Part shown: piece by piece, positions 2,331-56,724 of the stretch | Layout of the letters: every line of letters begins with the position of its first letter | Position numbering within the stretch: the first letter of the stretch is position 1 | NCBI RefSeq assembly: GCF_040676915.1 | Contig: NZ_JBFAPY010000006.1 | Coordinates: forward strand, 538,277-602,276 | Origin: Asanoa sp. NPDC049475 | GTDB lineage: Bacteria > Actinomycetota > Actinomycetes > Mycobacteriales > Micromonosporaceae | Length of the DNA stretch: 64,000 nt | Direction of reading: 5' to 3' | Translations under genes and position numbers: made by a program | Notes under the pieces: generated by a model | The model's input: only the letters and a program-made list of their open reading frames with translations | Databases searched by the model: none | What the model was told of the DNA's origin: nothing

Positions 2331-2358
2331 ACCGAGCAACAGCGAAAGGAATGACCGC

Positions 2359-4010: not shown

Positions 4011-4032
4011 CCAGGAAGGTGAGGACACGCTA

Positions 4033-5448: not shown

Positions 5449-5450
5449 CG

Positions 5451-6365
5451 ATGGCCCAGGACCGGCATGGCCGATACCGCTTCCTCGCGGGCGCGATCCT
5501 TCCCGCGCTGGCGTTGTACGCGGTGTTCGTGCTCTCCCCGTACGCGCAGGCGTTCTACCTGTCGCTGACCGACTGGACCGGCGTGTCCGGCCAGGTGAAC
5601 TTCGTCGGTCTCGACAACTTCACCCGCCTGTTCGGCGACCCGCTGTTCCTGGCGGCGTTGCGCAACAACGGGTTGATGCTCCTCGTCGTGCCGGTGGTCA
5701 CCATCGCGCTCGGGCTGCTGCTGGCGGTCCTGGTCACGTTCGGCGGGCGCCGCGGGTCGGCGATCCGTGGCGCCTCGACGTACCAGACCGCGTACTTCTT
5801 CCCACAGCTGTTGTCGTTGCCCATCATCGCGCTGCTCTGGCAGTTCGTGTACCACCCCAACGACGGCCTGCTCAACGGCCTGCTGCGGGGCATCGGGCTG
5901 GACGGCCTGGCCCGCACCTGGCTCGGCGACCCACAGCTCGCGCTGTGGGCGGTGATGGCCGTGCTGGTCTGGTCGTCGGTCGGTTTCTACATGGTGCTGT
6001 TCGCGGCCGCCATGGCGGCGATACCGACGGAGATCATCGAGGCCGCGGTGCTGGACGGCGCGGGCAAGCTGGCCACCCTGTGGCGGATCGTGCTGCCGCT
6101 GCTGCGCGACAGCGTGCAGGTGGCCTTCGTCTACCTCGGTGTGCTGGCGCTCGACGGGTTCGCTGTCGTGCAGGTGATGACCGTCGGACCCGGCGGCCCC
6201 GACAACGCCACCGAGGTGATGGGTCTGGGGCTCTACCGCAACGCGTTCACGTTCTCCAAGTTCGGCTACGCGGCCGCGATGGGCGTGACGCTGTTCTTCC
6301 TGACCCTCACGCTGGCCGTGCTGGCGATGCGGGCGGGCCGGCGCGAACGGGTGGAGCTGGCATGA
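5451..6365 (+). CDS. ABC transporter permease (MalF/UgpA-like carbohydrate permease)
   Basis: The protein has multiple transmembrane helices and the EAA-like motif region (…EAAVLDGAGKLATLWRIVLPLL…). Confidence 0.8.
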   Translation: MAQDRHGRYRFLAGAILPALALYAVFVLSPYAQAFYLSLTDWTGVSGQVNFVGLDNFTRLFGDPLFLAALRNNGLMLLVVPVVTIALGLLLAVLVTFGGRRGSAIRGASTYQTAYFFPQLLSLPIIALLWQFVYHPNDGLLNGLLRGIGLDGLARTWLGDPQLALWAVMAVLVWSSVGFYMVLFAAAMAAIPTEIIEAAVLDGAGKLATLWRIVLPLLRDSVQVAFVYLGVLALDGFAVVQVMTVGPGGPDNATEVMGLGLYRNAFTFSKFGYAAAMGVTLFFLTLTLAVLAMRAGRRERVELA

Positions 6366-22518: not shown

Positions 22519-23861
22519 CCACCCGCCTGCTGCACGTGGTGCTGCGTACCGAATCCGACGTGTTCGTGGCCCGGCAACGGGCCCGCGAGGTGGCCGAGGC
22601 GGTCGGCCTCGAACACCAGGACCAGGTGCGGCTGGCCACCGCTCTCAGCGAGGTCGGCCGAACCCTGTTCACGGCCAGGGGCGGACCGCCGGCCACCGGC
22701 GCCGAAGTGTGGTTCGCGGTCAACGGTGGGAAACTCGATGTCGAGGTCGTCGCGATCGGCCCGAGCCAGGCGGCGCAGCTGCCGAGCCTCGGTCGCCTGG
22801 TCGACAGCCTGACGATCGACGACGGACCGACGACGACGGTGGTGCGGATGAGCCGGCGGATCCCGGGTGGGGTCGAGCTGACGCCCGACGACCTCGACCG
22901 CGTCCGCGACGCGCTGGCCGCGTCGGCGCCACGCACCCCGCTCGACGAGATGGCCGAGCAGAACGAGCAGCTGCTCGCCGCGCTCGAGGAGACCCGGGCG
23001 CATCGCGACGACCTGGTCCGGCTCAACGCCGAGCTCGAGGAGACCAACCGCGGTGTGATGGCCCTCTACACCCAGCTTTCCGGCGAGCTGGAGGAGACCA
23101 ACCGCGGCGTGGTCGCGCTCTACGCCGAGCTCGACGAGCGATCCGCCCAGCTGCGGGCGGCGAGCGAGGCGAAGACCCGGTTCCTGGCCAACGTGAGCCA
23201 CGAGCTGCGAGCGCCGGTCACGGCGGTGATCGGGCTGGCCCGGCTGCTCGACGACCCCGAGTCGGACCCGCTGACCGGCGACCAGACCCAACAGGTGGCA
23301 CTGATCCGCGGTTCCGCCGACGACCTGCTGCGTCTGGTGAACGACCTGCTGGACCTGGCCAAGGCCGAGTCGGGCACGATCGAGCCGGACTGGTCCGAAG
23401 TGGACCTGCGTGCGCTGTTCAGCCAACTGCGGGGCACCGTGCGGGCCATGGCCACCGGCGCCGTCGAGCTCGTGGTCACCGACCCGGAGCAACCCGCGAC
23501 GATCCGCTCCGACGAGGTGCTGCTCGCCCAGGTGCTGCGCAACCTGCTGCACAACGGGCTCAAGTTCACGACCGCCGGCGAGGTGCGGATGACCGCGACG
23601 CGCAGCGGCGACGAATGGCTGATCCAGGTCTCCGACACCGGCGTCGGCATCCCGGCGGAGCTGCACGAGCGGATCTTCGAGGAGTTCTACCAGGTGCCCG
23701 GCCGCACGCTTGCCGGCGTGAAGGGCACAGGGCTCGGCCTGCCGTACGCCCGCCGCCTGGTCACCCTGCTCGGCGGCACACTGAGCGTGGCCAGCGAGCC
23801 CGGCGCGGGCAGCACGTTCACCGTCCGGCTGCCGGCGGCGGAGCACTATGGAGCATCCTGA
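22515..23861 (+). CDS. Histidine kinase (HisKA plus HATPase_c) with an N-terminal RsbT-like (GHKL-like) domain and a coiled-coil linker containing a tandem 17-aa repeat
   Basis: It overlaps the upstream gene in an ATGA arrangement. The H-box is ANVSHELRAPV and the G-box region is …SDTGVGIP…GTGLGLPYARRL…. The first ~120 aa resemble the N-terminal domain of the preceding kinase-PP2C protein. Confidence 0.8.
   Translation: MTTRLLHVVLRTESDVFVARQRAREVAEAVGLEHQDQVRLATALSEVGRTLFTARGGPPATGAEVWFAVNGGKLDVEVVAIGPSQAAQLPSLGRLVDSLTIDDGPTTTVVRMSRRIPGGVELTPDDLDRVRDALAASAPRTPLDEMAEQNEQLLAALEETRAHRDDLVRLNAELEETNRGVMALYTQLSGELEETNRGVVALYAELDERSAQLRAASEAKTRFLANVSHELRAPVTAVIGLARLLDDPESDPLTGDQTQQVALIRGSADDLLRLVNDLLDLAKAESGTIEPDWSEVDLRALFSQLRGTVRAMATGAVELVVTDPEQPATIRSDEVLLAQVLRNLLHNGLKFTTAGEVRMTATRSGDEWLIQVSDTGVGIPAELHERIFEEFYQVPGRTLAGVKGTGLGLPYARRLVTLLGGTLSVASEPGAGSTFTVRLPAAEHYGAS
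23031..23135 (+). repeat. Near-identical tandem 51-nt repeat inside the histidine kinase gene, encoding ELEETNRGV(M/V)ALY(T/A)(Q/E)L(S/D) twice
   Basis: The unit gagctcgaggagaccaaccgcggtgtgatggccctctacacccagctttcc is followed by gagctggaggagaccaaccgcggcgtggtcgcgctctacgccgagctcgac. Confidence 0.7.
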
Positions 23862-25404
23862 GTCCGCCACGGTGCTGGTCGTCGACGACAGCGACGCCAA
23901 GCGCTACCTGCTGGTCCGCTGGTTGACCCGGGCCGGGCTCACCGTGGTCGAGGCCGACAGCGGCACGGCCGCGCTGGAGCGGGTGGCGCACGGTGACATC
24001 GACCTGGTCGTGCTCGACGTGCGCCTGAGCGACATGAGCGGCTTCGAGGTCGCCGAGCAGATCAAGTCGCATCCGGTGCTCGCGGCGATCCCGGTCATCC
24101 ACGTGTCGGCGCACGCGGTCGACGTCGCCGACCGGGCACAGGGCCTGACCCGGGGAGCCGACGCCTACCTGGCCGAGCCGATCGAGCCCGACGAGCTGGT
24201 GGCGACGGCGCACGCGGTGCTGCGGTACTACCGTGCCCGCCGACAGGCCGAGACGCTGGCCGCGGGGTTGACCCGCCTCGCCGAGACGACGGTCGCGGTC
24301 AACTCGGCGCGTACGCTCACCGAACTGTTGACCGCCGCCTCGCTCGGGGCGGCCGAGATCTTCGGCAGCGGCGCGGTGGTCGCGGCGGACACGGTCACCG
24401 CGGGCAGCTCGGCCGGCGATCGCTTGGTGGCCGCGGTCACCGACCCGACGGGGCCGCCGATCGTCCGCGAATGGCCCGCCGCGACGGCGGTCGTACCGGT
24501 CGGCGCGATGGTCCGCAGCGACCCCCGCGAACAGTGGCCGCAACTCGACTGGCCGGGCGACGAGGTCGCGGTCGGCACCGCCCGCATTCGCGGCGACCGG
24601 CCGCCGCTGCACGTGGCCATCCCGGCCAGCGCGCTGCGCGACCAGGCCGACGTGCTCCGGCTCCTGGTCCAGGCGTTGGCGACGGCGGTCGAGGCGCAGC
24701 GGACGTACGACGAGGAACACCGGATCGCGGTCACCCTCCAACGCAGCCTGTTGCCGCAACGGATTCCCGAGGTGCCGGGCTACGACCTGGCGGTCCGCTA
24801 CATGCCGGCCAGCGCCCAAACCGAGGTCGGTGGCGACTTCTACGAGCTGACGATGATCGACGGGCAGCTCCTGGCGGCGATCGGTGACGTCACGGGCCAC
24901 TCCCTCTACGCCGCGACGGTCATGGCCGAGCTTCGGCACGCGGTCCGGGCGTACGCGGTCGAAGGCCACCCGCCGGCGACGTTGTTGGCGATGACCGACC
25001 AGTTGCTGCGCAAGCTGTTGCCGGGCGAACTGGCCACGATCTGCGTGCTGATGCTCGACCCGGCGACGGGCCAGATCTGCCTGGCGAACGCCGGCCATCT
25101 GCCACCGGTGCTGATCGTCGACGGAGTGGTGACGTTTGTCGAACACCCGGCACCACTGCTCGGCATCGACGCACCTCGGCCGGGCGACCTCGACCTGGTC
25201 CTCCCGCCGGGCGGCACGCTCGTCCTCTACACGGACGGCCTGATCGAACGCCGAACCCACGACATCGACCACGGCCTGGCCGAGCTCGCGGAAGCTGCGA
25301 GGGAGGTCGACCCGGACCTGGAACGCTACGCCGACCACCTGCTGTCCCTGGCCACTCCCCCGGTCGGCGACGACATAGCCGTGGTCGCCCTGCACCGACA
25401 CTGA
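23848..25404 (+). CDS. Response regulator (REC domain) fused to a PP2C/SpoIIE serine phosphatase (RsbU/RsbP-like output)
   Basis: The REC domain is …VLVVDDSDAKRYLL…DLVVLDVRLSDMSG…. The PP2C motifs are …GGDFYEL…, …GDVTGHSLYAA… and …LVLYTDGLIE…. It overlaps the kinase by 14 bp. Confidence 0.8.
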   Translation: MEHPESATVLVVDDSDAKRYLLVRWLTRAGLTVVEADSGTAALERVAHGDIDLVVLDVRLSDMSGFEVAEQIKSHPVLAAIPVIHVSAHAVDVADRAQGLTRGADAYLAEPIEPDELVATAHAVLRYYRARRQAETLAAGLTRLAETTVAVNSARTLTELLTAASLGAAEIFGSGAVVAADTVTAGSSAGDRLVAAVTDPTGPPIVREWPAATAVVPVGAMVRSDPREQWPQLDWPGDEVAVGTARIRGDRPPLHVAIPASALRDQADVLRLLVQALATAVEAQRTYDEEHRIAVTLQRSLLPQRIPEVPGYDLAVRYMPASAQTEVGGDFYELTMIDGQLLAAIGDVTGHSLYAATVMAELRHAVRAYAVEGHPPATLLAMTDQLLRKLLPGELATICVLMLDPATGQICLANAGHLPPVLIVDGVVTFVEHPAPLLGIDAPRPGDLDLVLPPGGTLVLYTDGLIERRTHDIDHGLAELAEAAREVDPDLERYADHLLSLATPPVGDDIAVVALHRH

Positions 25405-30304: not shown

Positions 30305-30399
30305 ACCGCGACAGCCTGGGGTCATCCGGCCATTCGGATGACCCCGTGCTTGTGCGCCCATGCCATCATCCTGAGGAACATTCATGGGGGTGGTTTCGA

Positions 30400-30993
30400 C
30401 CGGTGGGCGACTTCATCGACACGACTCTGGGCTTTCCGTCCGTGGTCTTCACCGTCCTGCTGACGGTCGTCGTCTGCTATTGGATCGTCGTGCTGGCGGG
30501 TGGGCTCGACACCGAGACCGACGGCGGGCTCGACGGCATTCTCGACCGGCTCGGGCTCGGTGGCACACCGGCGACGATCGTGCTGTCCATTGTGGTCGCG
30601 GTTGCCTGGTTCGCGAGTCTCGTCGGCACGGTCGTGCTGCCCGACAACGCCGTCTTCGAGGTCCTGGTGCTGGTCGCCAGCCTGGTGGTCGGCTGGGCCG
30701 TCGCCAACCTGCTTCGCCGGCCGTTGCGCCGGTTCTTCCCTACCGCGCCCGAGGCTTCTCGTCATGACTTCGTCGGCCGGGAGTGCGTCATTCGCACCGG
30801 CCGCGTGGCCATCGACTTCGGCCAGGCCGAGGTGCACGCCGCCGACGGGTCGTCGGCCATCGTGCAGGTGCGCCAGACCGGTGTCGACACGTTCGCGGTC
30901 GGCACCCGCGCGGTCATCTACGACTACGACTCCGCCGGCGAGTTCTTCTGGGTCGTGCCGGCCGACCTCTCGAATCGATCGAAGGACCGTTGA
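30400..30993 (+). CDS. NfeD-like / YqiJ-like (DUF1449-type) membrane protein: N-terminal TM helices plus a C-terminal OB-fold domain. It is the first gene of the flotillin operon.
   Basis: Only one frame gives a sensible protein (…FTVLLTVVVCYWIVVLAGGL…LVLVASLVVGWAVANLL… then …VIRTGRVAIDFGQAEVHAADGSSAIVQVRQ…). It ends TGATG-coupled to the flotillin gene. The start is uncertain: GTG 30400 is the first in-frame start, while the only good SD (GAGGAA) precedes an out-of-frame ATG at 30384. Confidence 0.5.
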   Translation, partial: PVGDFIDTTLGFPSVVFTVLLTVVVCYWIVVLAGGLDTETDGGLDGILDRLGLGGTPATIVLSIVVAVAWFASLVGTVVLPDNAVFEVLVLVASLVVGWAVANLLRRPLRRFFPTAPEASRHDFVGRECVIRTGRVAIDFGQAEVHAADGSSAIVQVRQTGVDTFAVGTRAVIYDYDSAGEFFWVVPADLSNRSKDR

Positions 30994-33008
30994 TGGACGT
31001 CATCTCGCTCGGGTTCCTCGTCCTCGTCGTGGTGCTCATCCTCGTACTCCTTGGCGTCCTGCTGCTCGTCAGCCGGCTGTTCAAGAAGGTCGAGCAGGGC
31101 AAGGCGCTGATCATCTCGAAGACCCGCAAGGTGGACGTCACGTTCACCGGTGCCGTGGTGCTGCCGGTGTTCCACAAGTCCGAGATCATGGACATCTCGG
31201 TGAAGACCATCGACATCGAGCGGTCCGGCAACGACGGCCTGATCTGTCAGGACAACATCCGGGCCGACATCAAAATCACCTTCTTCGTGCGCGTCAACAA
31301 GACCGCCGAAGACGTGGTGAAGGTGGCCCAGGCGATCGGCACCGCGCGCGCCAGCGACCAGGCGACGCTCCAGGAGCTGTTCAGCGCCAAGTTCTCCGAG
31401 GCGCTGAAGACGGTCGGCAAGCAGCTCGACTTCGTCGACCTCTACACCAAGCGCAACGAGTTCCGCGACCGCATCCTCGCCGTCATCGGCACCGACCTCA
31501 ATGGATACTCGCTCGAGGACGCGGCGATCGACGTGCTGGAGCAGACTCCGCTCGACCAGCTCGACCCGCGCAACATCCTCGACGCGCAGGGCATTCGTAA
31601 GATCACCGAGCTGACCGCCACCGAACACGTGCGCACCAACGAGTTCCGGCGCAACGAGGAGAAGGAGATCACACGCCAGAACGTCGACGCGAAGGAAGCC
31701 ATACTCGAGCTGGAGCGCCGACAGGCCGACGCGGAGATCAAGCAGAAGCGCGAGATCGACACCATGCGGGCACGCGAGGAGGCCGAGACCGAGCTGGTCC
31801 GGGCCGAGCAGCGGCTGCGCTACAACTCCGCGAACCTGCGCACCGACGAGCAGCTCGGCGTCCAGCGGGAGAACCAGGCCCGGGAGATCGCGGTCGCGGA
31901 GAAAAACCGGGAACGCGTCATCGCGATCGAGACCGAGCGGATCGAGAAGGACCGCATGCTCGAGGTGATCGGTCGCGAGCGGGAGACCGAGCTCTCGACG
32001 ATCGCCAAGAACAAAGAGGTCGAGGCGGAGAAGCGGTCGATCGCCGAGGTGATCCGCGAGCGGATCGCCGTGGAGAAGACCGTCGCCGAGCAGGAGGAGC
32101 ACATCAAGCGCCTGCGGGTGGTCGAGGAGGCCGAGCGCCTGCGCCAGTCGACGATCATCCAGGCCGAGGCGATGGCGCAGGAGAACCTGGTCAAGGACAT
32201 CAAGGCGGCCGAGGCCGCGGAGGTTTCGGCCAAGCACCGCGCCCGCGAGCAGCTCGTCCTCGCCGAGGCCCGGCAGCAGGCCGCCGAGCTCGACACCCGG
32301 GCGAAGATCCGGCTGGCCGAAGGCGCGCAGGCCGAGGCAGCCGCCGCCGGGCTGGCCGACGTGCAGGTGCGCGAGCGCGACGCCGAGGCGATCGAGAAGG
32401 TCGGCCGGGCCGAAGCGGTGGTCGAGCGGGAGAAGGCGATCGCGGCGGCCGAGGGCATGCGCGAGAAGCTCAAGGGCGAGGCCGAGGGTCTGACCGAGAA
32501 GGCGGCCGCGATGGCGGCGCTGGACGACGCGACCCGCGAGCACGAGGAATACCGCCTTCGCCTGGAGGCCGAGAAGGAGATCCGGCTCGCCGGCATCGAC
32601 GTGCAGCGGCAGGTGGCCGAGGCGCAGGCCGAGCTCATCGGCAAGGGCCTCGAGAAGGCCGACATCGACATCGTCGGCGGCGACAGCATCTTCTTCGACC
32701 GCCTGATCGGCGCGATCTCGACGGGCAAGAGCGTCGACGGCTTCGTCGGCAACTCGACCGTGGCCACCTCGCTGGCCGGCCCGTGGCTCGACGGCTCGTC
32801 CAGCTTCGCCGACGACCTCGGCAAGCTGCTCGGCAAGGTGAACACGGCCGACGTGACCAACTTGACCCTCTCGGCGTTCCTGCTCCAGCAGATCAAGGCA
32901 GGCGGCAACGACTCCGGCAAGCTGCGCGAGCTCCTGACGGCCGCCGAGAAGCTCGGTGTCGCGGACGCGCCGCTGGCCGCGCTCAACTCGTCGGCCGCCC
33001 GTGGCTGA
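30993..33008 (+). CDS. Flotillin-family SPFH/Band-7 protein (FloT/YqiK-like) with a long coiled-coil C-terminal region
   Basis: An N-terminal membrane anchor LGFLVLVVVLILVLLGVLLLV is followed by the SPFH domain (…ALIISKTRKVDVTF…VLPVFHKSEIMDISVKTIDI…) and an extended Glu/Ala/Arg-rich coiled coil. It is TGATG-coupled to the NfeD-like gene. Confidence 0.85.
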   Translation: MDVISLGFLVLVVVLILVLLGVLLLVSRLFKKVEQGKALIISKTRKVDVTFTGAVVLPVFHKSEIMDISVKTIDIERSGNDGLICQDNIRADIKITFFVRVNKTAEDVVKVAQAIGTARASDQATLQELFSAKFSEALKTVGKQLDFVDLYTKRNEFRDRILAVIGTDLNGYSLEDAAIDVLEQTPLDQLDPRNILDAQGIRKITELTATEHVRTNEFRRNEEKEITRQNVDAKEAILELERRQADAEIKQKREIDTMRAREEAETELVRAEQRLRYNSANLRTDEQLGVQRENQAREIAVAEKNRERVIAIETERIEKDRMLEVIGRERETELSTIAKNKEVEAEKRSIAEVIRERIAVEKTVAEQEEHIKRLRVVEEAERLRQSTIIQAEAMAQENLVKDIKAAEAAEVSAKHRAREQLVLAEARQQAAELDTRAKIRLAEGAQAEAAAAGLADVQVRERDAEAIEKVGRAEAVVEREKAIAAAEGMREKLKGEAEGLTEKAAAMAALDDATREHEEYRLRLEAEKEIRLAGIDVQRQVAEAQAELIGKGLEKADIDIVGGDSIFFDRLIGAISTGKSVDGFVGNSTVATSLAGPWLDGSSSFADDLGKLLGKVNTADVTNLTLSAFLLQQIKAGGNDSGKLRELLTAAEKLGVADAPLAALNSSAARG

Positions 33009-36000
33009 GCAGGCCACGGCAACTCTGGACGCCGGCACCTATGAGGTCCTGCGCGACCGGCTGGCGGCGCGGTCCGCCGAGCTGGCCAGCCGGGCGGAGG
33101 AGCTCAACGCCCGGCGGCTGGCCGAGTTCGGCAGCACCGAGCTCCGGCTGGTCGGCACCGACCGGGTCCGCACCGAGCACAACTGCGTGCCGCGCGACAT
33201 CGTGCCGGCCGCCGGCGTGATGCTGTTCGGCTACAACGTGTTCCTGGGCCTCAAGCCCGAGACCTCGGTCGGCGACGTGTTCTCGCTGCACCGGTTCCTG
33301 CGCGACGGCGACGCCTTCCGGTTCGACGACGTGCCGCCGGCCGAGGTGCCCGGGTTGCTCGACGACGAGACGTTCCAGCGCGACTTCGCGGAGCTCTACC
33401 GCTACTACCGGGAGACCCGCCTCGCCACGCTGCGCGAGGTCGACGGGAAGCTGCTCGCCGTCTTCCAGACCGGCCCGCGCACCGAGGACATCCGCGTGCT
33501 GCGCTGGGCCACGGCCCCGGACGGCACCGTCGCATACGTCGACAACCGGGGTGAGCGCGACCACGTCTTCCCGCCCAGCCACGACCTTGAGTGGGTGGAG
33601 ACCACCCGCGACGACCACGTGCTCGGCCGGCACCCGCACATCTCGATCGCCGGTGAGCTGTTCGTGGAGACGGTCGGCGGCGACCTCACCCTCAAGATCG
33701 AAGACAACACCGAGTCCGGCGAAGGCATCTACGCGGAGCCGGTGGAGCAGCCGCTGCAGAGCCTGGCCGACGCCGACGTGCACTGGGCGCGGGTCGGTCC
33801 GCTGATCCTGCTCCGCGTCCGGCCGTACAAGGAAAGCGCCTGGCGTCATCTGGTCTTCAACACGCGCACCAAGGACGTGGTGCGGCTCGACGGCATCGGG
33901 CAGTCCTGCCAGCGGCTGCCGGAGGACCACGGGATCATCTTCCCGGGCGGCTACTACCTGACCACGGGCGTGGTGAAGACGTTCGAGACCGACACGGCCG
34001 ACCTGGTGTTCGAGCGGCTGATCCGGTCACCCAACGGCGAGGACGTGCTCTACGTCTTCCACGCGGTCGTCGAGGGACGCAGCCTGCTGCTGCCCTACAA
34101 CGTGATCCGCAAGGAGGTCGCGACGCCGCTCGCGTGCCACGGCTACTCGCTGTTCGACGACGGCACGCTCGTGGTCTTCCGGGCCACCTCCGACGAGCCG
34201 ACCCGCGTACACCCGATGCAGGTCTGGCAGACCCCGTTCCGATCCGACGCGTACGCCGCCCGCCAGCCCGCCGGCACCGGCCCGCTGGCCCGGGTGGGCA
34301 ACGCCGATCTCGTCCGCGGCATCTCCGACGCGCTGTCGGTGGCGCGGATGGTCGGCGAGATGAGCCCGTCGGTGCCGGTGTTCGAGGCGCTGATCGCCGC
34401 GTGCGTGCGGGTCTTCGACCACTACCACTGGCTGGGCGAGGCGGAGCTGTGCGACCTGCGCACCCCGCTCGCCGAGGTACGCGCGACCGCCGAACAGGTG
34501 CTCGACGAGTACGAGCGCGTGCAGGCCCTCACCGCCGCCGCCGGCACCGCACTGGACACGGCCGCGGCCGATCTGGCCTCGCTCCTGCGCCGGGTCAACG
34601 GCGAACCACCGACGAGCACCGACGGCTGGATCCGCCAGCTCGCCGACCTGCGTCGCGCCCAGGGTCACCTGGAGACACTGCGGGAGCTGCGCTACGTCGA
34701 CCTGGCCCGGATCGACGCACTGGCCGCGGAGCTGGCCGCCGAGCTCGACGCCACGGCCCGGCGGGCGGTCGGTTTCCTCGAGCGCGACGACGCGTTCGCC
34801 GCTTACGGCGCCGAGGTCGAGCGGCTCACCGCCGAGGGTGCCGAGGTGCCCACCGTCGCGGCCGCCGCACCGGTCGGCGAGAAGCTCACCGAGCAGGCCG
34901 ACGCGCTGCGCCTGGTGACCGACGTGGTCGGCACGCTGGACATCGCGGACGCGACCGTGCGCACCGCCATCCTCGAACGAATCGGCGACGTGCTCGGCGC
35001 GGTCAACCGGGCGCGGGCCACCCTCGAAGCCCGCCGCCGCGAGCTGGCCGCGGTCGAGGGCCGGGCCGGCTTCGCGGCCGAGTTCGCGCTGCTCAACCAG
35101 GCCGTGACCGGCGCACTGGCGGCCTGCGACACCCCTGAGGCGTGCGACGACCAGCTCGGCCGTCTGCTGCTCCAGGTGGAGGTCCTGGAGTCCCGCTACG
35201 GCGAGTTCGACGACTTCCTGACCGAGCTCTCGACCAAGCGCACCGACGTCTACGAGGCGTTCTCGGCCCGCAAGCAGGCACTGGTCGATGAGCGCTCGCG
35301 GCGCGCGGACCGCCTGGTCGAGTCGGCGGACCGGATCCTGACCAGCGTCCGCCGCCGCGCGTCCACGATGGACACTCTCGACGACGTCAACACGTACTTC
35401 GCCGGCGACCCGATGGTGGCCAAGCTCCGCTCGGTCGCCGACGAGCTGCGCGCGCTCGGCGACGCGGTCCGCGGCGAAGAGCTCGACGGCCGGGTCAAGG
35501 CGACCCGGCAGGAGGCCGGCCGGGCGCTGCGCGACCGGATCGACCTGTTCCGCGACGGCGGCGAGACGATCCAGCTCGGCCGGCACCGGTTCGCCGTCAA
35601 CACCCAGGCGATCGAACTGGCGCTGGTGCCGCACGACGGGGCCATGGCGGTCGCGGTCACCGGCACCGACTTTCGCGCGCCGGTCGACGATCCGGAGTTC
35701 CGCACGACCGGCGAGTTCTGGGACCAGCCGCTGGTCTCCGAGTCGCCGTCGGTCAGTCGCGCGGAGTTCCTGGCCACCTCGATCCTGGCCACGGCCGACC
35801 TTGACGCGCTGCACGCGGCCGCCGCCGGCGGCACCCTGGGCGAGCTGGTGCGGCGGGCCGCCGAGGAGCGCATCGACGAGGGCTACGAGCGGGGCATCCA
35901 CGACGCCGACGCCACCGCGGTCCTCGACGCGCTGCTGCGCCTGCACGCCGGCGCCGGCCTGTTGCGCTACCCGCCGGCGGCCCGGGCGGCGGCCCAGCTC

Positions 36001-37872
36001 TTCTGGGCCCACGGCGCGGCCGAGGCGACGAAGCCACTGTGGACCCGCCGAGCCGCGTCGCTCGCCCGCGCCCGCGCGGCGTTCGGGGGCTCACCGGCGA
36101 TCGACGAGCTCCAGGCCGAGTTGTCGGCTGCGGTCACCGCCTTCGTCGGTGGCCCGGGACTGCCCGACCATCCGCTGGCCGGCGAGTATCTGTTCGAGGA
36201 GCTGGCCGCGGGCAACGGCTTCGGCACCAGCGCGGGCGCCAGGTCGCTGCTGGCCGGTTTCCGCAAGGCGCTGGGCCGCCCGCGCGCCCGCGAGCTCGAC
36301 GAGGACCTACGCGCGCTCGGCACGGACCTGGCCGCGCGGCACCAGCTCGTCGAGGCCTGGCTGGCCGCGTACGCGGGGCAGAGCGAGTTCCTGGCCGAAG
36401 CGGTGGCGATCGAGCTCTGTGACGTCCCGCGGTACGAATCGTCGGCCGAGCTGACCGCGACCGTCGACGGCCTGCTGGGCACGCACCCCCGGATCGTCTC
36501 GCGGCAGCTCACGTTGCGGCTGGACGAGGTGCTGGCCCGCACGGCAGGGTTCCGGGACAACCGGGTGCCGGCATACCGCGCGTACCAGCGGCTCCGAACG
36601 CGGGTCGCAGAGGAGGCCGGCCGGCGGCTGCGGCTGGACGAGCACAAGCCGCGGGTGATGTCGGGCTTCGTGCGCAACCGCCTGCTCGACGAGGTCTACC
36701 TACCGTTGATCGCCGACAACCTGGCCCGGCAGGTCGGCGCGGCCGGTGACGCCAAGCGCGTCGACCAGTCCGGCCTGCTGCTGCTCATCTCCCCGCCCGG
36801 CTATGGCAAGACCACGCTGATGGAGTACGTGGCCAGCCGCCTCGGGCTGGTTTTCGTCAAGGTCAACGGCCCGGCCCTGGGCACCGCGGTCACGTCGGTC
36901 GACCCGGCGTCAGCTCCCGACGCGACCGCGCGCCAGGAGGTCGAGAAGATCTCGTTCGCGCTGGAGATGGGCAGCAACGTGCTGCTCTACCTGGACGACA
37001 TCCAGCACACGTCGCCCGAGCTCCTCCAGAAGTTCATCTCGCTGTGCGACGGCCAGCGCCGCATGGAGGGGGTCTGGAACGGCCAGACGCGGACGTACGA
37101 CCTGCGCGGCAAACGGTTCGCGGTGTGCATGGCCGGCAACCCGTACACCGAGTCGGGCAAACGCTTCCGGGTGCCCGACATGCTCGCGAACCGCGCGGAC
37201 GTGTGGAACCTGGGCGACGTGCTGTCCGGTCGGGACGAGCTGTTCGCGCTCAGCTACGTCGAGAACGCGCTGACCGCCAACCCGGTGCTGGCTCCACTGT
37301 CCACTAGGGATAGAGGGGACGTGGAGCTGCTGGTCCGCATGGCCCGGGGCGACACGTCCGTGCTGCCGGACCAGCTCGCACACCCGTACCCGGCGGTCGA
37401 GCTCACCCAGATCCGTTCGGTGCTGGGCAAGCTGCTGCGGGTGCGCGACGTGGTGCTGTCGGTCAACCGGGCCTACATCGCGTCCGCGGGCCAGGACGAC
37501 GCGTCCCGCACGGAGCCGCCGTTCCTGCTCCAGGGCTCGTACCGCAACATGAACAAGCTCGCCGAGCGCATCCTGCCGGTGATGAACGACGACGAGCTGG
37601 AAGCGGTCCTCGACGACCACTACGTCGGCGAGGCCCAGACGCTGGCCGCGGCGGCCGAGGCGAACCTGCTCAAGCTGGCCGACCTGCGGGGCCGGCTGAC
37701 CCCGTCGCAGGCGGCTCGCTGGTCGGAGGTCAAGGCGGCCTACCTGCGCCAGCGCGCCCTCGGCGGCGCCGACGACGACCCGATGGCCCGCGCGGTCGGC
37801 GCGGTCGGCCTGGTCGCCGACCGCATCAGCGAAGTCGAAGCAACCCTAAGAAGATCAATTTCCGGAGCATGA
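33001..37872 (+). CDS. Giant (about 1620 aa) protein with a C-terminal MoxR/AAA_5-type AAA+ ATPase domain. The first ~1200 aa are of unknown function and include long helical/coiled-coil segments.
   Basis: Walker A is LLLISPPGYGKTTL (about 36790-36830) and Walker B is VLLYLDDIQH (about 36980-37010). The signature …RFAVCMAGNP…RVPDMLANRADVWNL… is typical of AAA_5/MoxR. The GTG at 33001 overlaps the flotillin stop by 8 bp (GTGGCTGA); an alternative ATG lies at 32956. Confidence 0.75.
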   Translation: MAEQATATLDAGTYEVLRDRLAARSAELASRAEELNARRLAEFGSTELRLVGTDRVRTEHNCVPRDIVPAAGVMLFGYNVFLGLKPETSVGDVFSLHRFLRDGDAFRFDDVPPAEVPGLLDDETFQRDFAELYRYYRETRLATLREVDGKLLAVFQTGPRTEDIRVLRWATAPDGTVAYVDNRGERDHVFPPSHDLEWVETTRDDHVLGRHPHISIAGELFVETVGGDLTLKIEDNTESGEGIYAEPVEQPLQSLADADVHWARVGPLILLRVRPYKESAWRHLVFNTRTKDVVRLDGIGQSCQRLPEDHGIIFPGGYYLTTGVVKTFETDTADLVFERLIRSPNGEDVLYVFHAVVEGRSLLLPYNVIRKEVATPLACHGYSLFDDGTLVVFRATSDEPTRVHPMQVWQTPFRSDAYAARQPAGTGPLARVGNADLVRGISDALSVARMVGEMSPSVPVFEALIAACVRVFDHYHWLGEAELCDLRTPLAEVRATAEQVLDEYERVQALTAAAGTALDTAAADLASLLRRVNGEPPTSTDGWIRQLADLRRAQGHLETLRELRYVDLARIDALAAELAAELDATARRAVGFLERDDAFAAYGAEVERLTAEGAEVPTVAAAAPVGEKLTEQADALRLVTDVVGTLDIADATVRTAILERIGDVLGAVNRARATLEARRRELAAVEGRAGFAAEFALLNQAVTGALAACDTPEACDDQLGRLLLQVEVLESRYGEFDDFLTELSTKRTDVYEAFSARKQALVDERSRRADRLVESADRILTSVRRRASTMDTLDDVNTYFAGDPMVAKLRSVADELRALGDAVRGEELDGRVKATRQEAGRALRDRIDLFRDGGETIQLGRHRFAVNTQAIELALVPHDGAMAVAVTGTDFRAPVDDPEFRTTGEFWDQPLVSESPSVSRAEFLATSILATADLDALHAAAAGGTLGELVRRAAEERIDEGYERGIHDADATAVLDALLRLHAGAGLLRYPPAARAAAQLFWAHGAAEATKPLWTRRAASLARARAAFGGSPAIDELQAELSAAVTAFVGGPGLPDHPLAGEYLFEELAAGNGFGTSAGARSLLAGFRKALGRPRARELDEDLRALGTDLAARHQLVEAWLAAYAGQSEFLAEAVAIELCDVPRYESSAELTATVDGLLGTHPRIVSRQLTLRLDEVLARTAGFRDNRVPAYRAYQRLRTRVAEEAGRRLRLDEHKPRVMSGFVRNRLLDEVYLPLIADNLARQVGAAGDAKRVDQSGLLLLISPPGYGKTTLMEYVASRLGLVFVKVNGPALGTAVTSVDPASAPDATARQEVEKISFALEMGSNVLLYLDDIQHTSPELLQKFISLCDGQRRMEGVWNGQTRTYDLRGKRFAVCMAGNPYTESGKRFRVPDMLANRADVWNLGDVLSGRDELFALSYVENALTANPVLAPLSTRDRGDVELLVRMARGDTSVLPDQLAHPYPAVELTQIRSVLGKLLRVRDVVLSVNRAYIASAGQDDASRTEPPFLLQGSYRNMNKLAERILPVMNDDELEAVLDDHYVGEAQTLAAAAEANLLKLADLRGRLTPSQAARWSEVKAAYLRQRALGGADDDPMARAVGAVGLVADRISEVEATLRRSISGA

Positions 37873-37900
37873 CTCGGATCCGAGTCAGATCGGTTATGGA
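37870..37900 (+). terminator. Intrinsic-terminator-like hairpin immediately after the giant ATPase gene
   Basis: There is a perfect 18-bp palindrome TGACTCGGATCCGAGTCA (7-bp stem, GAUC loop), followed by the U-richer tail UUAUGGAUCUUUCUC. The next gene converges on it. Confidence 0.45.
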
Positions 37901-52214: not shown

Positions 52215-55200
52215 CTAGTTGCGCTTCAAAACGTCCGCGATCTCGCCGCTGTCGAGCTCCGACAGCAGTGCCAGCGCGGCGTGCCATTGCTCCCGGGCGA
52301 TGGTGCCGAGGCCGTTCGCGCGGGCGATGTCGCCGAGGAGCCGCAGGGAGCGCGCCTCACCGAGCCGGTGGCCCGTCTGTCGGTGCAGGGTGAGCGCGCG
52401 CTGTCCACTGTCGACAGCGCCGTCGATGTCGCCGTTCCGCAGGTGGATGCTGCCGAGCAGCAGGTGGGCGTTGCCGGCCAGCACCCGGTGTCCGGCGCGC
52501 CAGGCGTGGGCCAGCGCGTCGGCGGCGACGGTCGTCGCGGAGGCCGGATCGCCGGTGTCCCGCAGTGCCGCGGCGAGGCCGATGGTGGTCCGCGTGCGCA
52601 CGTACTCGCTTCCGGTGCCCAACATCGCCAACCCGCGCCGGTGCTCCTCGACGGCCCGCTGCGGGTCGCCGAGCCAGTGGTGCACGGTGCCGAGCAGCGA
52701 CAGGATGTCGCCCTCGACCATCGGGTCCGCCGCTTCCCGGGCCTTGACCAGGGCGGCCTCCGCGTTGGCCAGGGCCTCGGTCAGCTCGCCGCGGTCGCGT
52801 TGCACGGCGGCCAGTCCACCGAGCAGGTGCGCCTCCGAGTACGCCTTCGCCACGTCGGACTGGAGCTCCATCGCGGCCCGGAACCGGTCGGCGGCGGTCG
52901 CTTCGCCCAGCAGGTGCTCGACCGCGCCGAGGTTGTTCAGCGCGATCATCTGGCCGATCGAGGACCCGATCTCCTCGTGCATGGCCAGCGCCGTCACGCA
53001 GTAGTCCGCCGCCCGGCGGAGCTCGCCCAGATCGTGATAGAGCCCGCCGAGCGTGATCAGCGTGCTGGCCTCGCCGGGCCGGTACTCGTTGGCCCGGTGC
53101 AGCTCCAACGCCCGTTCACTGCTGCGCGCCGACCCCGCGAAGTCGCCCATGTTCTTGAGGACCACGCCGAGGTTGCCGGCCGCGGCGGCCTGCCCGCGCG
53201 ACCAGCCGGCCCGGTCGGAGAGCTCGGCGGCCGTCTCGAACTCGGCCGCCGCACCGGCGAGGTCACCCTGGTTCTGCCGGGCCAGCGCGATGCTGGTGCG
53301 CATCGCGGCCTGGGCCTGCAGGTCACCCTCCGCCTCGGCGGCCCCGAGGCTGGCATTGACCGCGGCGAGCCAGTCGACGGTGTGGCTGCCCTGCCAGAAG
53401 TAGCCGCGCAGGGCGTCGGTGAGCTGCCACGCCCCGGCCTTCGGGCCGGCCGAGGCGGCATGGCCGATCGCGGCGAGCAGGTTGCGGTGCTCGGCGTCCA
53501 GCCACGCCAGCGCGGCCGGGTTGGAGTCGAAGCCGGCCACCTCCGGAAGCTCCGCGAGCGGCAGCCGGATCATGTGCGGATAGAGCCGCCGCGCTGCCGC
53601 GTCGGCCGTGGCCAGATAGTGAGCATGCAGGCCGCCCAGGGCCACCGCGGCTTCGTCGTCGCCGGTCAGCTCGCGGGCGTACGTGCGGAGCAGGTCGTGC
53701 AGGCCGAACCGCCCCGGCCGGGGCGTGGTGACCAGGTGCGCCTTGCGGAGGCCGTCGAGCGCGCCGGCGGCCGCGGCCCGGGTCAGCCCCGCGAGCGCGG
53801 CGGCCCCGGCGGCGTCGACGTCTGTGCCGGGCACGGCGCCGAGCAGCCGGAACACGTCGCGCTCCAGCGGGCCGAGCCGCTCGTAGGAGGCGCGGAAGGT
53901 CGCTCGCACACCGGACAGCTCGTCGCCCTCGATCGTCAGCCGGTCGAGCGGACCCTTGTCGAGCAGGCGGAGGTAGTCACCCAGCGTGGTCGCCGGCTCG
54001 GCGTCGAGCTGCGCGGCGGCGATCCGCACGGCGAGCGGGAGAAGGCCGCAGGCGCGTACGAGGTCGGCCGCGGCGGCCGGCTCGGCATCGACCCGGCGCT
54101 CGCCGATGATCGTGCGGAGCAGCAGCAACGCCTCGGGCTCCGTGAGCAGGTCGACGGTGAGCCGCCGAGCGCCGTGGCTGGCGGTCAGGCCGCCGAGCTG
54201 AGCGCGGCTGGTCACGACCACCACGCACGTCGGCGCGCCCGGCAGCAGCGGCCGCACCTGCTCGGCGGTGGCGGCGTTGTCGAGCACCATCAGCACCCGA
54301 CGGCCGGCGATCTCACTCCGGAACAGCGCGCCGGCTTCGTCGGGGTCGGGCGGAATGCGATCACCGGGTACGCCGAGCGCGCGCAGGAACCGGGCCAGCG
54401 CGTCGACGGGCCGGACGGGAGGCGCCGACTCGTACCCCCGGAGGTTGACGAAGAGCTGCCCGTCGGGGAACCGGTCGGCGACGTGGTGCCCCCAGCGGAC
54501 GGCGAGAGCGGTCTTGCCGACCCCACCGGCACCGTCGATCGCGGAGATGACCACCGGCGTGCGGCCGGCGGTGAGCAGCTCGTCGAGCTGTCCGAGCAGC
54601 GCGGTCCGCCCGACGAAATCGGGCACGGCGGCCGGGAGCTGAGCGGGCAGCTTCCCGGCCGGTGCCGGGCGCAGTGCCGGGTCGTCGCGCAGGATCTGGG
54701 TGTGCAGCCGGCGGAGCTCGTCGCCGGGCTCCAGGCCGAGCTCGGTGCGGACCCGGTCGCGGATCCGCCCGTACGCGGCCAGCGCGTCAGGCCGCCGCCC
54801 GTCCCGGAAGAGCGCGGTCATCAGATGCCCGGCGAGCCGCTCGTCCAGCGGCGCCCCCGCGCACAGCTCGGTCAGCTCACCGACCAGCTCGCCGTGGCGC
54901 CCGGTCTCGAGATCGGCGGCGATCCGCAGGTCGAGCGCGGTCCTGCGGCCCTCTTCGAGCCGGGCGGCCAGCCGCTCCCGCCCGGGCCCGACATCTTCGA
55001 GGGCCGGCCCCCGCCAGAGCGCCAGGGCGTCCCGAAGCAGCTCGGCGCGGTGGTGGGGGTCGTCGCTGTCACGGGCCTCTGCCACGAGCGCGGCGAACTG
55101 GTGCGCGTCGACCGTCTTCGGGTCGACGTCGATCCGGTAGGAGCCGTTGGTCAGCTCGATCCGGGCCGCGTCACCGAGCAGGGCCCGCAGCCTCGAGATG

Positions 55201-55394
55201 TAGGTCTGCACGACGCCGCGCGCGCCACGCGGGGGCTCGCCCTCCCAGATCAGCTCGACCAGGCGCCCGACGGGCACGCCCTGGCCGGCCTCGAGCAGCA
55301 GGATGGCCAGCACCCACCGCTCCTGCCGCCGCCCGATCCCGACACGACCGCCACAGACACTGACCTCGACCGGACCGAGCAGGCGAAACTCCAC
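52215..55394 (-). CDS. AfsR-type large SARP regulator: N-terminal OmpR-like winged helix plus BTAD, a central NB-ARC/P-loop NTPase, and a C-terminal TPR array
   Basis: The start is the GTG at 55394 (VEFRLLGPVEV…). Walker A is GAGGVGKT, and TPR repeats run to the C-terminus. The first 365 codons of the track ORF are shadow frame and were rejected. Confidence 0.8.
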   Translation of the reverse strand: MEFRLLGPVEVSVCGGRVGIGRRQERWVLAILLLEAGQGVPVGRLVELIWEGEPPRGARGVVQTYISRLRALLGDAARIELTNGSYRIDVDPKTVDAHQFAALVAEARDSDDPHHRAELLRDALALWRGPALEDVGPGRERLAARLEEGRRTALDLRIAADLETGRHGELVGELTELCAGAPLDERLAGHLMTALFRDGRRPDALAAYGRIRDRVRTELGLEPGDELRRLHTQILRDDPALRPAPAGKLPAQLPAAVPDFVGRTALLGQLDELLTAGRTPVVISAIDGAGGVGKTALAVRWGHHVADRFPDGQLFVNLRGYESAPPVRPVDALARFLRALGVPGDRIPPDPDEAGALFRSEIAGRRVLMVLDNAATAEQVRPLLPGAPTCVVVVTSRAQLGGLTASHGARRLTVDLLTEPEALLLLRTIIGERRVDAEPAAAADLVRACGLLPLAVRIAAAQLDAEPATTLGDYLRLLDKGPLDRLTIEGDELSGVRATFRASYERLGPLERDVFRLLGAVPGTDVDAAGAAALAGLTRAAAAGALDGLRKAHLVTTPRPGRFGLHDLLRTYARELTGDDEAAVALGGLHAHYLATADAAARRLYPHMIRLPLAELPEVAGFDSNPAALAWLDAEHRNLLAAIGHAASAGPKAGAWQLTDALRGYFWQGSHTVDWLAAVNASLGAAEAEGDLQAQAAMRTSIALARQNQGDLAGAAAEFETAAELSDRAGWSRGQAAAAGNLGVVLKNMGDFAGSARSSERALELHRANEYRPGEASTLITLGGLYHDLGELRRAADYCVTALAMHEEIGSSIGQMIALNNLGAVEHLLGEATAADRFRAAMELQSDVAKAYSEAHLLGGLAAVQRDRGELTEALANAEAALVKAREAADPMVEGDILSLLGTVHHWLGDPQRAVEEHRRGLAMLGTGSEYVRTRTTIGLAAALRDTGDPASATTVAADALAHAWRAGHRVLAGNAHLLLGSIHLRNGDIDGAVDSGQRALTLHRQTGHRLGEARSLRLLGDIARANGLGTIAREQWHAALALLSELDSGEIADVLKRN

Positions 55395-55646
55395 GCCGAC
55401 CGACCTTATAGAGCTGCACAACCGGACGAAACCCCAGACGGTAAGCGATCCGGTATGCGCGGTCCGCCACGCTGTCCCCATCGGGGGCGGCGAGGGTCGC
55501 GACTCACCGCAAAGCGGCACCGACGGTGGGGCGGTGCCGCTTCGTCCCCGACGGCTGTGGCGGAGGCGGCCGCCTCCGGCATCCGGGGTCGTGAGACGTA
55601 GCGTGTAACTGTGGATGCACCGCCGGTCGTTGTTGATCGCCCGGTT

Positions 55647-56327
55647 ATGTTTCAGACCTGGCGTGAGCTCACCTTTCTGCACTGGCGTTATCCCGCGCCC
55701 GTGGTGCAGGCCCTGCTGCCTGACGGGCTGACCGTCGACACGCACGACGGCGACGCCTGGGTCGGGCTCGTGCCGTTCGTCATGGCCGGCATTCGGGCTC
55801 CGTACGTGCCCGCGCTCCCCTGGCTCTCCCGCTTCCCCGAGACCAACGTCCGCACGTACGTCATCGGGCCTGATGGGCGGGCCGGCATCTGGTTCTTCTC
55901 CCTCGACGCCGCGCGGCTGGTGCCGGTAGTGGTCGCCCAGCTGACGTACTCGCTGCCCTACGTGTGGTCGGCGATGTCCGTGCGGGTCGACGGGCCGGTG
56001 CACCACTACCGCTGCCGCCGGCATCGGCGACCGGATCGGCGGTGCGACGCGACCGTGCGGGTCGGCCGGCCCATCCCCCAGCCCACGCCGCTCGAAGAGT
56101 TCCTGACCGCCCGCCACCGGCTCTACAGCGTGCGGTCCGGGCGGATGGTCGCCGCCGACGCCGAGCACGGCCCCTGGCCGCTGCGTCAGGGCGAGCTTCT
56201 CGACCTCGACCAGAACCTGTTGGAAGCCGCCCACCTGCCGACGCCGACCACCGACCCGCTGGTCCACACCTCGGCCGGCGTGCTGGTGCGGGTCAGCGGC
56301 TGGCGCGAGGTCAGGGCCGGTTCGTGA
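55647..56327 (+). CDS. DUF2071-domain protein (YqjF-like)
   Basis: The N-terminus MFQTWRELTFLHWRYP matches the conserved start of DUF2071. The track ORF begins at GTG 55611. Confidence 0.6.
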   Translation: MFQTWRELTFLHWRYPAPVVQALLPDGLTVDTHDGDAWVGLVPFVMAGIRAPYVPALPWLSRFPETNVRTYVIGPDGRAGIWFFSLDAARLVPVVVAQLTYSLPYVWSAMSVRVDGPVHHYRCRRHRRPDRRCDATVRVGRPIPQPTPLEEFLTARHRLYSVRSGRMVAADAEHGPWPLRQGELLDLDQNLLEAAHLPTPTTDPLVHTSAGVLVRVSGWREVRAGS

Positions 56328-56724
56328 TCTGCTGCACCGCCCACGCGTTGCCGTCCGGGTCCGTGAAGTTGATGAAGCCGACGTTGTTGAGGTCGTCGCC
56401 CTCCTCACGCGGCCGCGGACCGTTGGCGCCGTAGACGACGATCTCGCTGACCTCGACCCCGCGCGAGACGAGCTGTGCCCGCGCCGCATCCAGGTCGTTG
56501 ACCACGAGCTGGAGGCCTTTGAGCGAGCCCGGCGGCATGTCGGCGACCGCGCCGAAGCCGATCACCACCGAGCAGCCCGAACCGGGCGGGGTGAGCTGCA
56601 CGATCCGGAAACCCGGGCCGGCCGTGTCGTGGTCGACCGCGAACCCGAGCTTCGAAGCGTAGAACTCCTTGGCCCGGTCCACATCGGATACCGGAACGAT
56701 GACGACTTCCAGGGTCCAGTTCAT
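56311..56724 (-). CDS. VOC-family protein (glyoxalase/bleomycin-resistance fold)
   Basis: The fold signature is …VVIVPVSDVDRAKEFYASKLGF… and …FTDPDGNAWAV…. Start chosen at MNWTLEV (56724). Confidence 0.75.
   Translation of the reverse strand: MNWTLEVVIVPVSDVDRAKEFYASKLGFAVDHDTAGPGFRIVQLTPPGSGCSVVIGFGAVADMPPGSLKGLQLVVNDLDAARAQLVSRGVEVSEIVVYGANGPRPREEGDDLNNVGFINFTDPDGNAWAVQQITNRP

Follow-up and report, generated by a model that had tools for sequence, protein, structure and literature searches.

The stretch analyzed here (the window) comprises 64,000 nucleotides (nt) of Asanoa sp. NPDC049475 (contig NZ_JBFAPY010000006.1, positions 538,277 to 602,276 of the forward strand) and has a GC content of 71.5%. 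Between positions 30403 and 37872 it holds three co-directional open reading frames (ORFs) on the plus strand, whose GC content at third codon positions (GC3, 0.91 to 0.94) is the codon bias expected at 71% GC. Together they form a three-gene operon for a small membrane protein, a flotillin-like scaffold protein, and a 1623-residue ATPase. The initial annotation of this region had described the genes as chained by overlapping stop and start codons, and both junctions are confirmed in the sequence. At TGATG (30991-30995), gene 2 begins with an ATG (30993) that overlaps the preceding stop codon, while at GTGGCTGA (33001-33008) the GTG start of gene 3 lies in an 8-nt overlap with the TGA stop of gene 2. 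The genes are as follows.

30403 to 30993, plus strand: gene 1, YqiJ/YuaF (short NfeD-like) type membrane protein, 196 amino acids (aa)
30993 to 33008, plus strand: gene 2, flotillin-like SPFH protein, 671 aa, with Pfam Band_7
33001 to 37872, plus strand: gene 3, ATPase, 1623 aa, GTG start, named "DNA repair ATPase" in NCBI, UniRef, and JGI

The locus is a further member of a module that has been described computationally. Ravi et al. (mSystems 2024, PMC11237479; bioRxiv 2020) reported operons that combine CesT/Tir-PspA genes with YqiJ/YuaF, Band-7/flotillin, and beta-propeller/coiled-coil AAA+ genes, treated them as relatives of the phage-shock (PspA) membrane-stress operons, and noted widely distributed "abbreviated" operons without PspA. 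Their description is at the level of domains, with no experiments, and includes ANH61663.1 of Dokdonia donghaensis as an example (Table S3). The names DUF3686 and DUF7902 do not appear in the text of that paper, nor does DUF3686 in one of its supplementary files. The gene order in the window is the same as theirs, with a YqiJ/YuaF-like protein with three transmembrane (TM) helices, then a protein with a TM segment, Band-7 domain, and coiled coil, and then a propeller, coiled-coil, and AAA+ protein. The initial annotation had implied that this association was undescribed, but both the gene trio and its link to PspA are already present in the 2024 paper. The contribution made here consists of confirmation, quantification, and structural detail, and includes the unusual Walker B motif (Asp-Asp, DD), a predicted pre-sensor-1 hairpin, and quantitative synteny; the association itself had been published computationally. 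Unlike the full form of the operon, the window copy is without the CesT/Tir-PspA dyad, and an amidohydrolase gene and a hairpin lie upstream of it instead. Since no PspA is found in the 64-kb window, the operon corresponds to the abbreviated form.

The start codon of gene 1 is most likely the GTG at 30403 and not 30400, as the resulting N-terminus (MGDFIDTTLGFP...) agrees with the consensus start of its family. As read from its sequence, the product has three predicted TM helices, the first two of which are joined by a short acidic loop. TM3 is followed by a basic segment (RRPLRRFF) and then by a beta-rich C-terminal domain of approximately 70 aa that is predicted to be cytoplasmic. The protein itself does not match Pfam, even at an E value of 10. 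Positional homologues were collected from 118 syntenic loci, and 22 diverse members were aligned. These share the three TMs, a variable acidic D-x-D loop, the basic post-TM3 stretch, and a beta-rich C-terminus of approximately 70 residues. Eight of the 22 match Pfam YqiJ_N (best E value, 5e-6) and two match NfeD; queried against the PDB, the family profile finds Bacillus subtilis YuaF (2K14) as its best match, with an E value of 0.005 over the C-terminal domain. The YqiJ/NfeD-like label proposed earlier thus holds for the family, although the window protein alone has no Pfam match to carry it. Across the family, the strongly acidic loop that joins TM1 to TM2 and carries D-x-D-x-D repeats is highly variable, reaching approximately 60 residues in some members and being very short in the window (LDTETDGGLDG). 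This loop may bind cations or polyamines; polyamine genes were reported in related PspA operons (PMC11237479).

The product of gene 2 contains a Pfam Band_7 domain (PF01145; E value, 9e-10; 39.3 bits versus a cut-off of 23.6; residues 32-175), preceded by an N-terminal TM anchor (residues ~5-27, as read from the translation). The domain is followed by a long helical region rich in E, A, R, and K, a conserved IDIVGGD..FFD motif, and a C-terminal extension of approximately 100 aa. No Pfam family other than Band_7 is found at an E value of ≤0.01, and there is no NCBIfam match. Queried directly against PDB sequences, flotillin-1/2 and HflK/C included, the protein returns no match, and the sole match of its family profile is Escherichia coli QmcA (8z5g; E value, 0.005). 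Within the Actinomycetes, orthologues are 65 to 82% identical. As neither a flotillin-specific profile nor a PDB match was obtained, the term "flotillin-like" refers to architecture and not to orthology with FloT or YqiK. In this sense, the earlier description of a 672-aa flotillin with a long coiled coil stands for the SPFH domain, the TM anchor, and the long charged helical region, with the length corrected to 671 aa. The soluble parts of both the small protein and the flotillin-like protein appear to face the cytoplasm, judging from their sequences.

This arrangement recalls the NfeD-SPFH pairs of E. coli (yqiJK, ybbJ-qmcA) and B. subtilis (yuaF-floT), in which the gene for a small OB-like membrane protein also lies directly upstream of an SPFH gene. 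The family profiles point in the same direction, with YuaF 2K14 and YqiJ_N/NfeD matched by gene 1 and QmcA matched by gene 2, but the window proteins are too diverged for direct matches. To our knowledge, the classical pairs have no third gene for a giant ATPase.

The third gene encodes the protein of 1623 aa that the initial annotation had put at approximately 1620 aa. The closest relatives of the window are Asanoa species, and the orthologue of Asanoa hainanensis (P0001) has the same length (1623 aa) and 94% identity. The protein appears to be cytoplasmic and soluble, as reading its translation by eye revealed no segment with the hydrophobicity typical of a TM helix. Two AlphaFold2 (AF2) models were built from alignments of 55 to 57 homologues with 24 to 90% identity to the modelled window segment. 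Combined with Pfam and conserved residues, they give the following layout.

33037 to 33129, plus strand: residues 13-43, one long helix predicted at the N-terminus, corresponding to the "coiled-coil" of Ravi et al., from AF2
33145 to 34230, plus strand: residues 49-410, beta-propeller-like all-beta domain of ~28 predicted strands (about seven blades), core of DUF3686, from AF2 and Foldseek
34246 to 36678, plus strand: residues 416-1226, predicted helical bundles with helices of 20 to 55 residues, including DUF7902
35566 to 35682, plus strand: residues ~856-894, predicted small five-strand beta insertion, from AF2
36679 to 37260, plus strand: residues ~1227-1420, AAA+ core, from Pfam, AF2, and invariant residues
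36790 to 36816, plus strand: Walker A, SPPGYGKTT, invariant in family alignments
36982 to 36999, plus strand: Walker B, LLYLDD, with Asp at the usual position of the catalytic Glu
Between the Walker B and sensor-1 strands: residues 1354-1367, predicted pre-sensor-1 beta-hairpin, from AF2
Within 37126 to 37200, plus strand: sensor-1 AGNP and putative Arg finger R1398 in ANRAD
37261 to 37869, plus strand: residues 1421-1623, predicted helical lid and conserved C-terminal helical domain, from AF2, with invariant EPPF.LQGSYRNM

The initial annotation had regarded a C-terminal AAA_5/MoxR ATPase as the only recognizable domain. Pfam places DUF3686 at residues 27-476 (E value, 2e-220) and DUF7902 at residues 597-681 (nt 34789-35043; E value, 8e-29), so this view has to be abandoned. 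In the model of residues 1-720 (mean predicted local distance difference test [pLDDT] score, 90), the long helix 13-43 is followed by approximately 28 strands (49-410) and then by helices; the model of residues 691-1623 (mean pLDDT, 88) comprises long helices, the five-strand insertion at ~856-894, a helical domain, the AAA+ core, and a helical C-terminus. Foldseek matches of the beta domain in the PDB are numerous, diverse beta-propellers without relation to one another, such as Elp1, paraoxonase, Ski8, the clathrin terminal domain, and prolyl oligopeptidase, with E values of 2e-6 to 1e-4 and low TM-scores. A PDB sequence search with the whole ATPase yields only matches to classical AAA proteins that are local to Walker A. 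The N-terminal 1200 residues are thus modelled as a propeller with helical arms, without a well-characterized relative. Had this region belonged to a well-studied family, that family could have explained the role of the protein; what it matched were two DUFs and, by fold, beta-propellers and helical bundles of a generic kind, which leaves a partnership with the flotillin standing.

Two side observations concern this N-terminal region. In one homologue of 1876 aa (P0302), ankyrin repeats are fused N-terminally to the DUF3686 ATPase, which suggests that the N-terminus is a modular protein-binding end. In addition, several Foldseek matches of the N-terminal model (E values of ~1e-4 over 550 to 710 columns) are to the terminal domain plus linker of the clathrin heavy chain. 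The modelled likeness, a propeller followed by a helical leg, is too weak to be claimed.

In the AAA+ core, Walker A including its Lys, the sensor-1 Asn, and the candidate Arg finger are invariant in four family alignments. The Walker B motif, located in LLYLDDIQH (36982-37008; residues 1328-1336), has an invariant Asp where the catalytic Glu is normally found, as seen in all members aligned, a DDIQ-type sequence resembling that of DnaA. This substitution would fit an ATPase that acts slowly, like a switch, better than a fast unfoldase. On reading the sequence from Walker A to Walker B, no aromatic-hydrophobic-Gly motif of a pore loop is evident.

Placing this core in a clade is less straightforward. 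In Pfam, AAA_5 (27.6 bits; E value, 3e-6) and AAA (26.9 bits; E value, 7.5e-6) score nearly alike, AAA_22 and RuvB_N are about as weak, and AAA_3 gives no match. The AAA+ profile, when compared to PDB sequences, finds NVL, Rix7, and p97 over only ~40 residues around Walker A. These local matches to classical AAA proteins are misleading with regard to the clade, because the fold search gives another neighborhood: RuvB, CbbQ/NorQ, ClpC1, Lon, MCM, and dynein, with E values of 2.5e-4 to 4e-3 and no classical-clade chain among the top 50 Foldseek matches. The hairpin predicted at residues 1354-1367 likewise sets the core apart from the classical AAA clade (Vps4/p97/FtsH). Going by the models, the core resembles AAA+ proteins with a pre-sensor-1 hairpin, within which several families are candidates for a finer placement.

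The MoxR-type label given to the protein at first is among these candidates and was considered in its own right. It shares with the MoxR proteins RavA, CbbQ, and NorQ a weak AAA_5 match and the predicted pre-sensor-1 hairpin, and CbbQ2 and NorQ have the highest target-normalized TM-scores among the fold matches (0.45 to 0.53). The protein differs in that no VWA/MIDAS partner accompanies it (none was found in the operon or in eight flanking genes), in that the E values for RuvB are equal or better and the generic AAA scores equal in Pfam, and in its 1200-aa N-terminal extension, which the matched solved MoxR chains of 235 to 267 residues do not have. MoxR chains are also missing from the top 60 sequence-profile PDB matches. 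Since AAA_5 scores no better than AAA and the fold search puts RuvB, Clp, Lon, and MoxR at a similar distance, the label is unproven and was dropped.

The fold matches also bear on the name under which the protein circulates. That it is a DNA repair ATPase is stated by NCBI, UniRef, and JGI and by the description line of Pfam DUF3686, and RuvB indeed has the best Foldseek E value for the AAA+ core (2.5e-4), next to weak RuvB_N and NCBIfam RuvB matches. However, the likeness to RuvB is confined to the generic AAA+ core and reaches 19 bits against a cut-off of 282, and the fold matches to CbbQ/NorQ, Clp, Lon, and MCM are equally good. Neither Pfam nor the fold searches revealed a DNA-binding, nuclease, or helicase accessory domain, every conserved neighbor is a membrane or membrane-stress protein, and no paper was found in support of the name. 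A function in DNA repair is therefore hardly credible to us, and the widely propagated name is probably a misannotation.

To what extent the ATPase keeps company with the flotillin can be read from its homologues, which number >7382 proteins (E value of ≤1e-5) and fall into 1010 clusters at 50% identity (E value of <1e-10), the full-length architecture being kept down to approximately 27% identity. The family is present in at least 587 species-representative genomes, and has representatives in Actinomycetota, Myxococcota, Gammaproteobacteria, Victivallales, Bacteroidota, and Lachnospiraceae. Synteny was scored in 80 genome loci and in 80 divergent metagenome loci (31 to 51% identical to a distant query), counting only those in which sufficient upstream DNA was available. 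In every such genome locus (75/75), the ATPase gene directly follows a flotillin homologue of the same orientation, and in 61 of the 75 the small gene could be detected as well. The divergent metagenome loci give a similar picture, with the flotillin adjoining the ATPase in 61/64 and the small gene present in 55/57. These syntenic loci span Actinomycetota, Myxococcota, Bacteroidota, Clostridia/Lachnospiraceae, and proteobacterial metagenome-assembled genomes. Intergenic gaps taken from hidden Markov model coordinates are too rough to give the frequency of overlap coupling, so the claim made here is one of adjacency. Had the homologues been found mostly away from flotillin or NfeD genes, the idea of a functional partnership would have lost its ground; the counts show the opposite.

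The core pair is flotillin plus ATPase, nearly but not strictly obligate. The initial annotation had called the ATPase obligately coupled to its two neighbors, which overstates the case: the flotillin is missing from three metagenome loci (taken up below), and the small gene is missing from a Streptomyces subclade of at least eight loci (L042, L053, L058, L060, L062, L076, L078, and L079), where flotillin and ATPase are present and no plausible small ORF was seen upstream on inspection. In that subclade, the YqiJ-like protein is thus dispensable or relocated. Clustering of the flanking ORFs revealed no universal fourth gene, with PspA and DUF2170 occurring in a subset of loci. A lineage-specific neighbor lies upstream of the module in ~27 to 30 Streptomyces loci; it was considered as a conserved fourth gene and rejected as lineage synteny. 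In L032, this neighbor (2691-4247) is a PucR-like regulator (GGDEF_2 plus HTH_30) on the same strand, and some Nonomuraea-type loci (e.g., L011) have a NarL-type response regulator 4 nt upstream. Both are candidate regulators of the module.

The families recurring in that subset connect the module to the phage-shock system. In 16 metagenome loci (e.g., L100 and L104), the small gene is preceded at a distance of 4 nt by a gene of the PspA_IM30 family (Pfam), and in 10 metagenome loci a second family further upstream is DUF2170 (YjfI, CesT/Tir-like; Pfam). Flavobacterium tegetincola (L162) has the order CesT_Tir_1, PspA_IM30, a 221-aa protein, a 686-aa protein, and the ATPase. The full, PspA-containing form of Ravi et al. 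(PMC11237479) is accordingly found in related loci. PspA lies directly upstream in the 16 metagenome loci and in F. tegetincola, and in the latter the complete gene order of that paper goes with the same ATPase family as in the window. A dependence of PspA on an SPFH protein is on record in B. subtilis, where PspA localization needs YdjI (PMC8581546). The F. tegetincola operon stands beside an SSB fragment, an HRDC protein, and an HTH_3/S24 repressor-like gene (2229-3636), and this neighborhood could be one border of a mobile element.

Such surroundings raise the question of whether the module could act in anti-phage defense or abortive infection, with a membrane scaffold and a large NTPase sensing infection, an alternative that the initial annotation had left room for. 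Large multi-domain NTPases are common in defense systems, and the ATPase is one; the module has a patchy distribution and forms a self-contained cassette whose neighbors differ between genera; and a HipA toxin gene lies near it in L101, as do the S24-type repressor, SSB, and HRDC genes in L162. Yet PADLOC-DB v2 returns for the ATPase only IetA, with E values of 0.003 to 0.004 over ~30 residues of the P-loop, and nothing for the other two proteins, which amounts to P-loop noise. Nuclease, protease, TIR, Sir2, or other effector domains are absent, and the proteins keep 60 to 80% identity across orders of Actinomycetes, as housekeeping proteins do and unlike fast-evolving defense genes. The flanks in the window consist of metabolic and transport genes, and the recurrent link is to PspA. 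We consequently regard a defense role as quite improbable.

The reading that we favor, with somewhat less than even confidence, is that the ATPase spends ATP on remodeling a cytoplasmic flotillin/PspA scaffold that acts in membrane stress; the window would hold an abbreviated copy of this module. It retains the ATP-driven assembly or remodeling machine on a flotillin platform that was proposed in the initial annotation, which we still infer to be the best interpretation. In this scheme, the flotillin-like protein would form an oligomeric sub-membrane cage or platform, on which the C-terminal OB-like domain of the small protein would dock, as in other NfeD-SPFH pairs. The ATPase would oligomerize through its AAA+ domain and bind the scaffold through its propeller and helical arms, its target being either the conserved extended C-terminus of the flotillin or PspA polymers recruited to the flotillin. 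ATP binding and hydrolysis could then power the assembly, remodeling, or recycling of this scaffold when the membrane is stressed or under repair, by a logic analogous to that of Vps4 with ESCRT-III or FtsH with HflK/C. With its DD Walker B and without an aromatic pore loop, the enzyme would be a slow switch or remodeller and not a Vps4-like threading unfoldase.

These analogies hold in part. As in the Vps4-ESCRT-III system, an AAA+ ATPase is encoded together with a polymer of the ESCRT-III superfamily, PspA, in the extended operons, and this co-occurrence makes a recycling or remodeling role the natural hypothesis. Vps4 is about four times smaller than the window ATPase. Unlike Vps4, the window protein lacks a MIT domain, has fold matches of the RuvB/MoxR/Clp type rather than to the classical clade, and shows neither the usual Walker B nor an evident aromatic pore loop. 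SPFH scaffolds are recurrently paired with AAA+ machines, as in HflK/C-FtsH and prohibitin-m-AAA, and the HflK/C cage is a 24-mer. The window operon would likewise couple an SPFH scaffold to an AAA+ ATPase at the membrane, an analogy of logic only. FtsH is a membrane-anchored AAA protease of the classical clade and is not homologous outside the AAA+ core, whereas the window ATPase is apparently soluble, is without a protease domain, and has a predicted pre-sensor-1 hairpin and a propeller; its scaffold, by the topology read from sequence, would be cytoplasmic rather than periplasmic.

The same pairing can be read differently, with the ATPase extracting, unfolding, or assembling client membrane proteins corralled by the flotillin cage, as a protease-less analogue of HflK/C-FtsH, prohibitin-m-AAA, or erlin-p97. 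The recurrent SPFH-AAA+ pairing and the conserved flotillin-ATPase synteny are as expected for such a machine, and in the metagenome locus L101 the place of the flotillin next to the ATPase is taken by AIM24 and an M48 (HtpX-like) membrane protease. Ravi et al. (PMC11237479) also favor a chaperone-like assembly of membrane-linked complexes. On the other hand, the protein has no protease domain and the operon no protease gene, a canonical aromatic pore loop is not evident and Walker B is DD, and clustering of the flanking ORFs found no conserved client gene in the neighborhoods. We judge this client-handling role plausible but rather unlikely, although less so than a part in defense.

Several observations weigh against a scaffold remodeller as well. 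The lack of the canonical Glu in Walker B makes robust hydrolysis doubtful, as far as the sequence can tell, and the lack of an aromatic pore loop disfavors simple threading of the Vps4 kind. Three metagenome loci (L090, L101, and L121) have the ATPase beside other neighbors and without flotillin, so the enzyme can presumably act in another context too. For Asanoa itself, a connection to PspA is no more than possible, as tblastn searches with PspA and DUF2170 found nothing over the 64-kb window. No experimental paper was found on any family member when searching for DUF3686, DUF7902, "DNA repair ATPase" with flotillin, or YqiJ with YqiK and ATPase; a paper on the sigma-E regulon of Streptomyces coelicolor does not mention the operon. 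Finally, the end of the transcription unit is less sharply defined than it seemed, as the region 37870-37887, which would be the terminator, folds no better than shuffled sequences (z = 0.17). In the flotillin-less locus L101, AIM24 and M48 (HtpX-like) peptidase genes (4479-6292) precede the ATPase.

A wider proposition extends the remodeller to the whole family. DUF3686 ATPases would be the dedicated energy-consuming partners of flotillin cages, and of PspA/ESCRT-III polymers where these are present, in the form of a megadalton machine. Its propeller and helical arms would attach it to the cytoplasmic flotillin dome, where it would power assembly, turnover, or the repair of the membrane. This is possible, but we consider it doubtful at present.

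The boundaries of the operon are marked by two sequence elements.

30317 to 30346, plus strand: GC-rich hairpin, folding energy of -33.6 kcal/mol, z = -4.65, 0/200 shuffles as stable
37870 to 37887, plus strand: 18-nt perfect palindrome TGACTCGGATCCGAGTCA, overlapping the ATPase stop codon

The preceding gene encodes an Amidohydro_1/3 protein and has its stop codon at 30304. The hairpin downstream of that stop is probably the terminator of the amidohydrolase gene and the 5' boundary of the operon. On the 3' side, a convergent M19 dipeptidase gene ends at 37907. A perfect palindromic terminator at 37870-37900 had been proposed earlier. The 18-nt palindrome is real, but its role as a terminator is not borne out, given its folding, the lack of a T-run, and the terminator scan, which made no call there; it is a possible terminator, perhaps a bidirectional one. 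The wider neighbors encode a GDPD phosphodiesterase, a beta-lactamase-fold protein, an ABC ATPase, a major facilitator superfamily (MFS) transporter, and a PadR regulator, and the flanking genes are functionally unconnected to the operon. Further away, a response regulator in which a receiver is fused to a SpoIIE/PP2C phosphatase (23785-25401, plus strand) lies ~5 kb upstream, with no link to the operon seen, and an ORF of 1448 aa (52215-56561, minus strand) has gene-like codon bias (GC3, 0.88).

The value of these results lies in the ATPase family and not in the Asanoa window copy itself. The function of bacterial flotillins is disputed, and we know of no energy-consuming partner that has been assigned to them. 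The module offers a candidate for such a partner, a very large, highly conserved ATPase that is almost always encoded directly downstream of a flotillin-like gene. If the family-wide proposition is true, the ATPase would be the bacterial version of a logic known from eukaryotes and archaea, in which a membrane scaffold works with an AAA+ recycler. Its N-terminus of propeller and helical arms would then correspond, by convergence or as a distant analogue, to the clathrin heavy chain with its propeller and helical leg. As Streptomyces, the Micromonospora family, Myxococcus, and Flavobacterium carry the module, it provides a genetically tractable handle on the assembly and recycling of SPFH scaffolds and ESCRT-III-like polymers.

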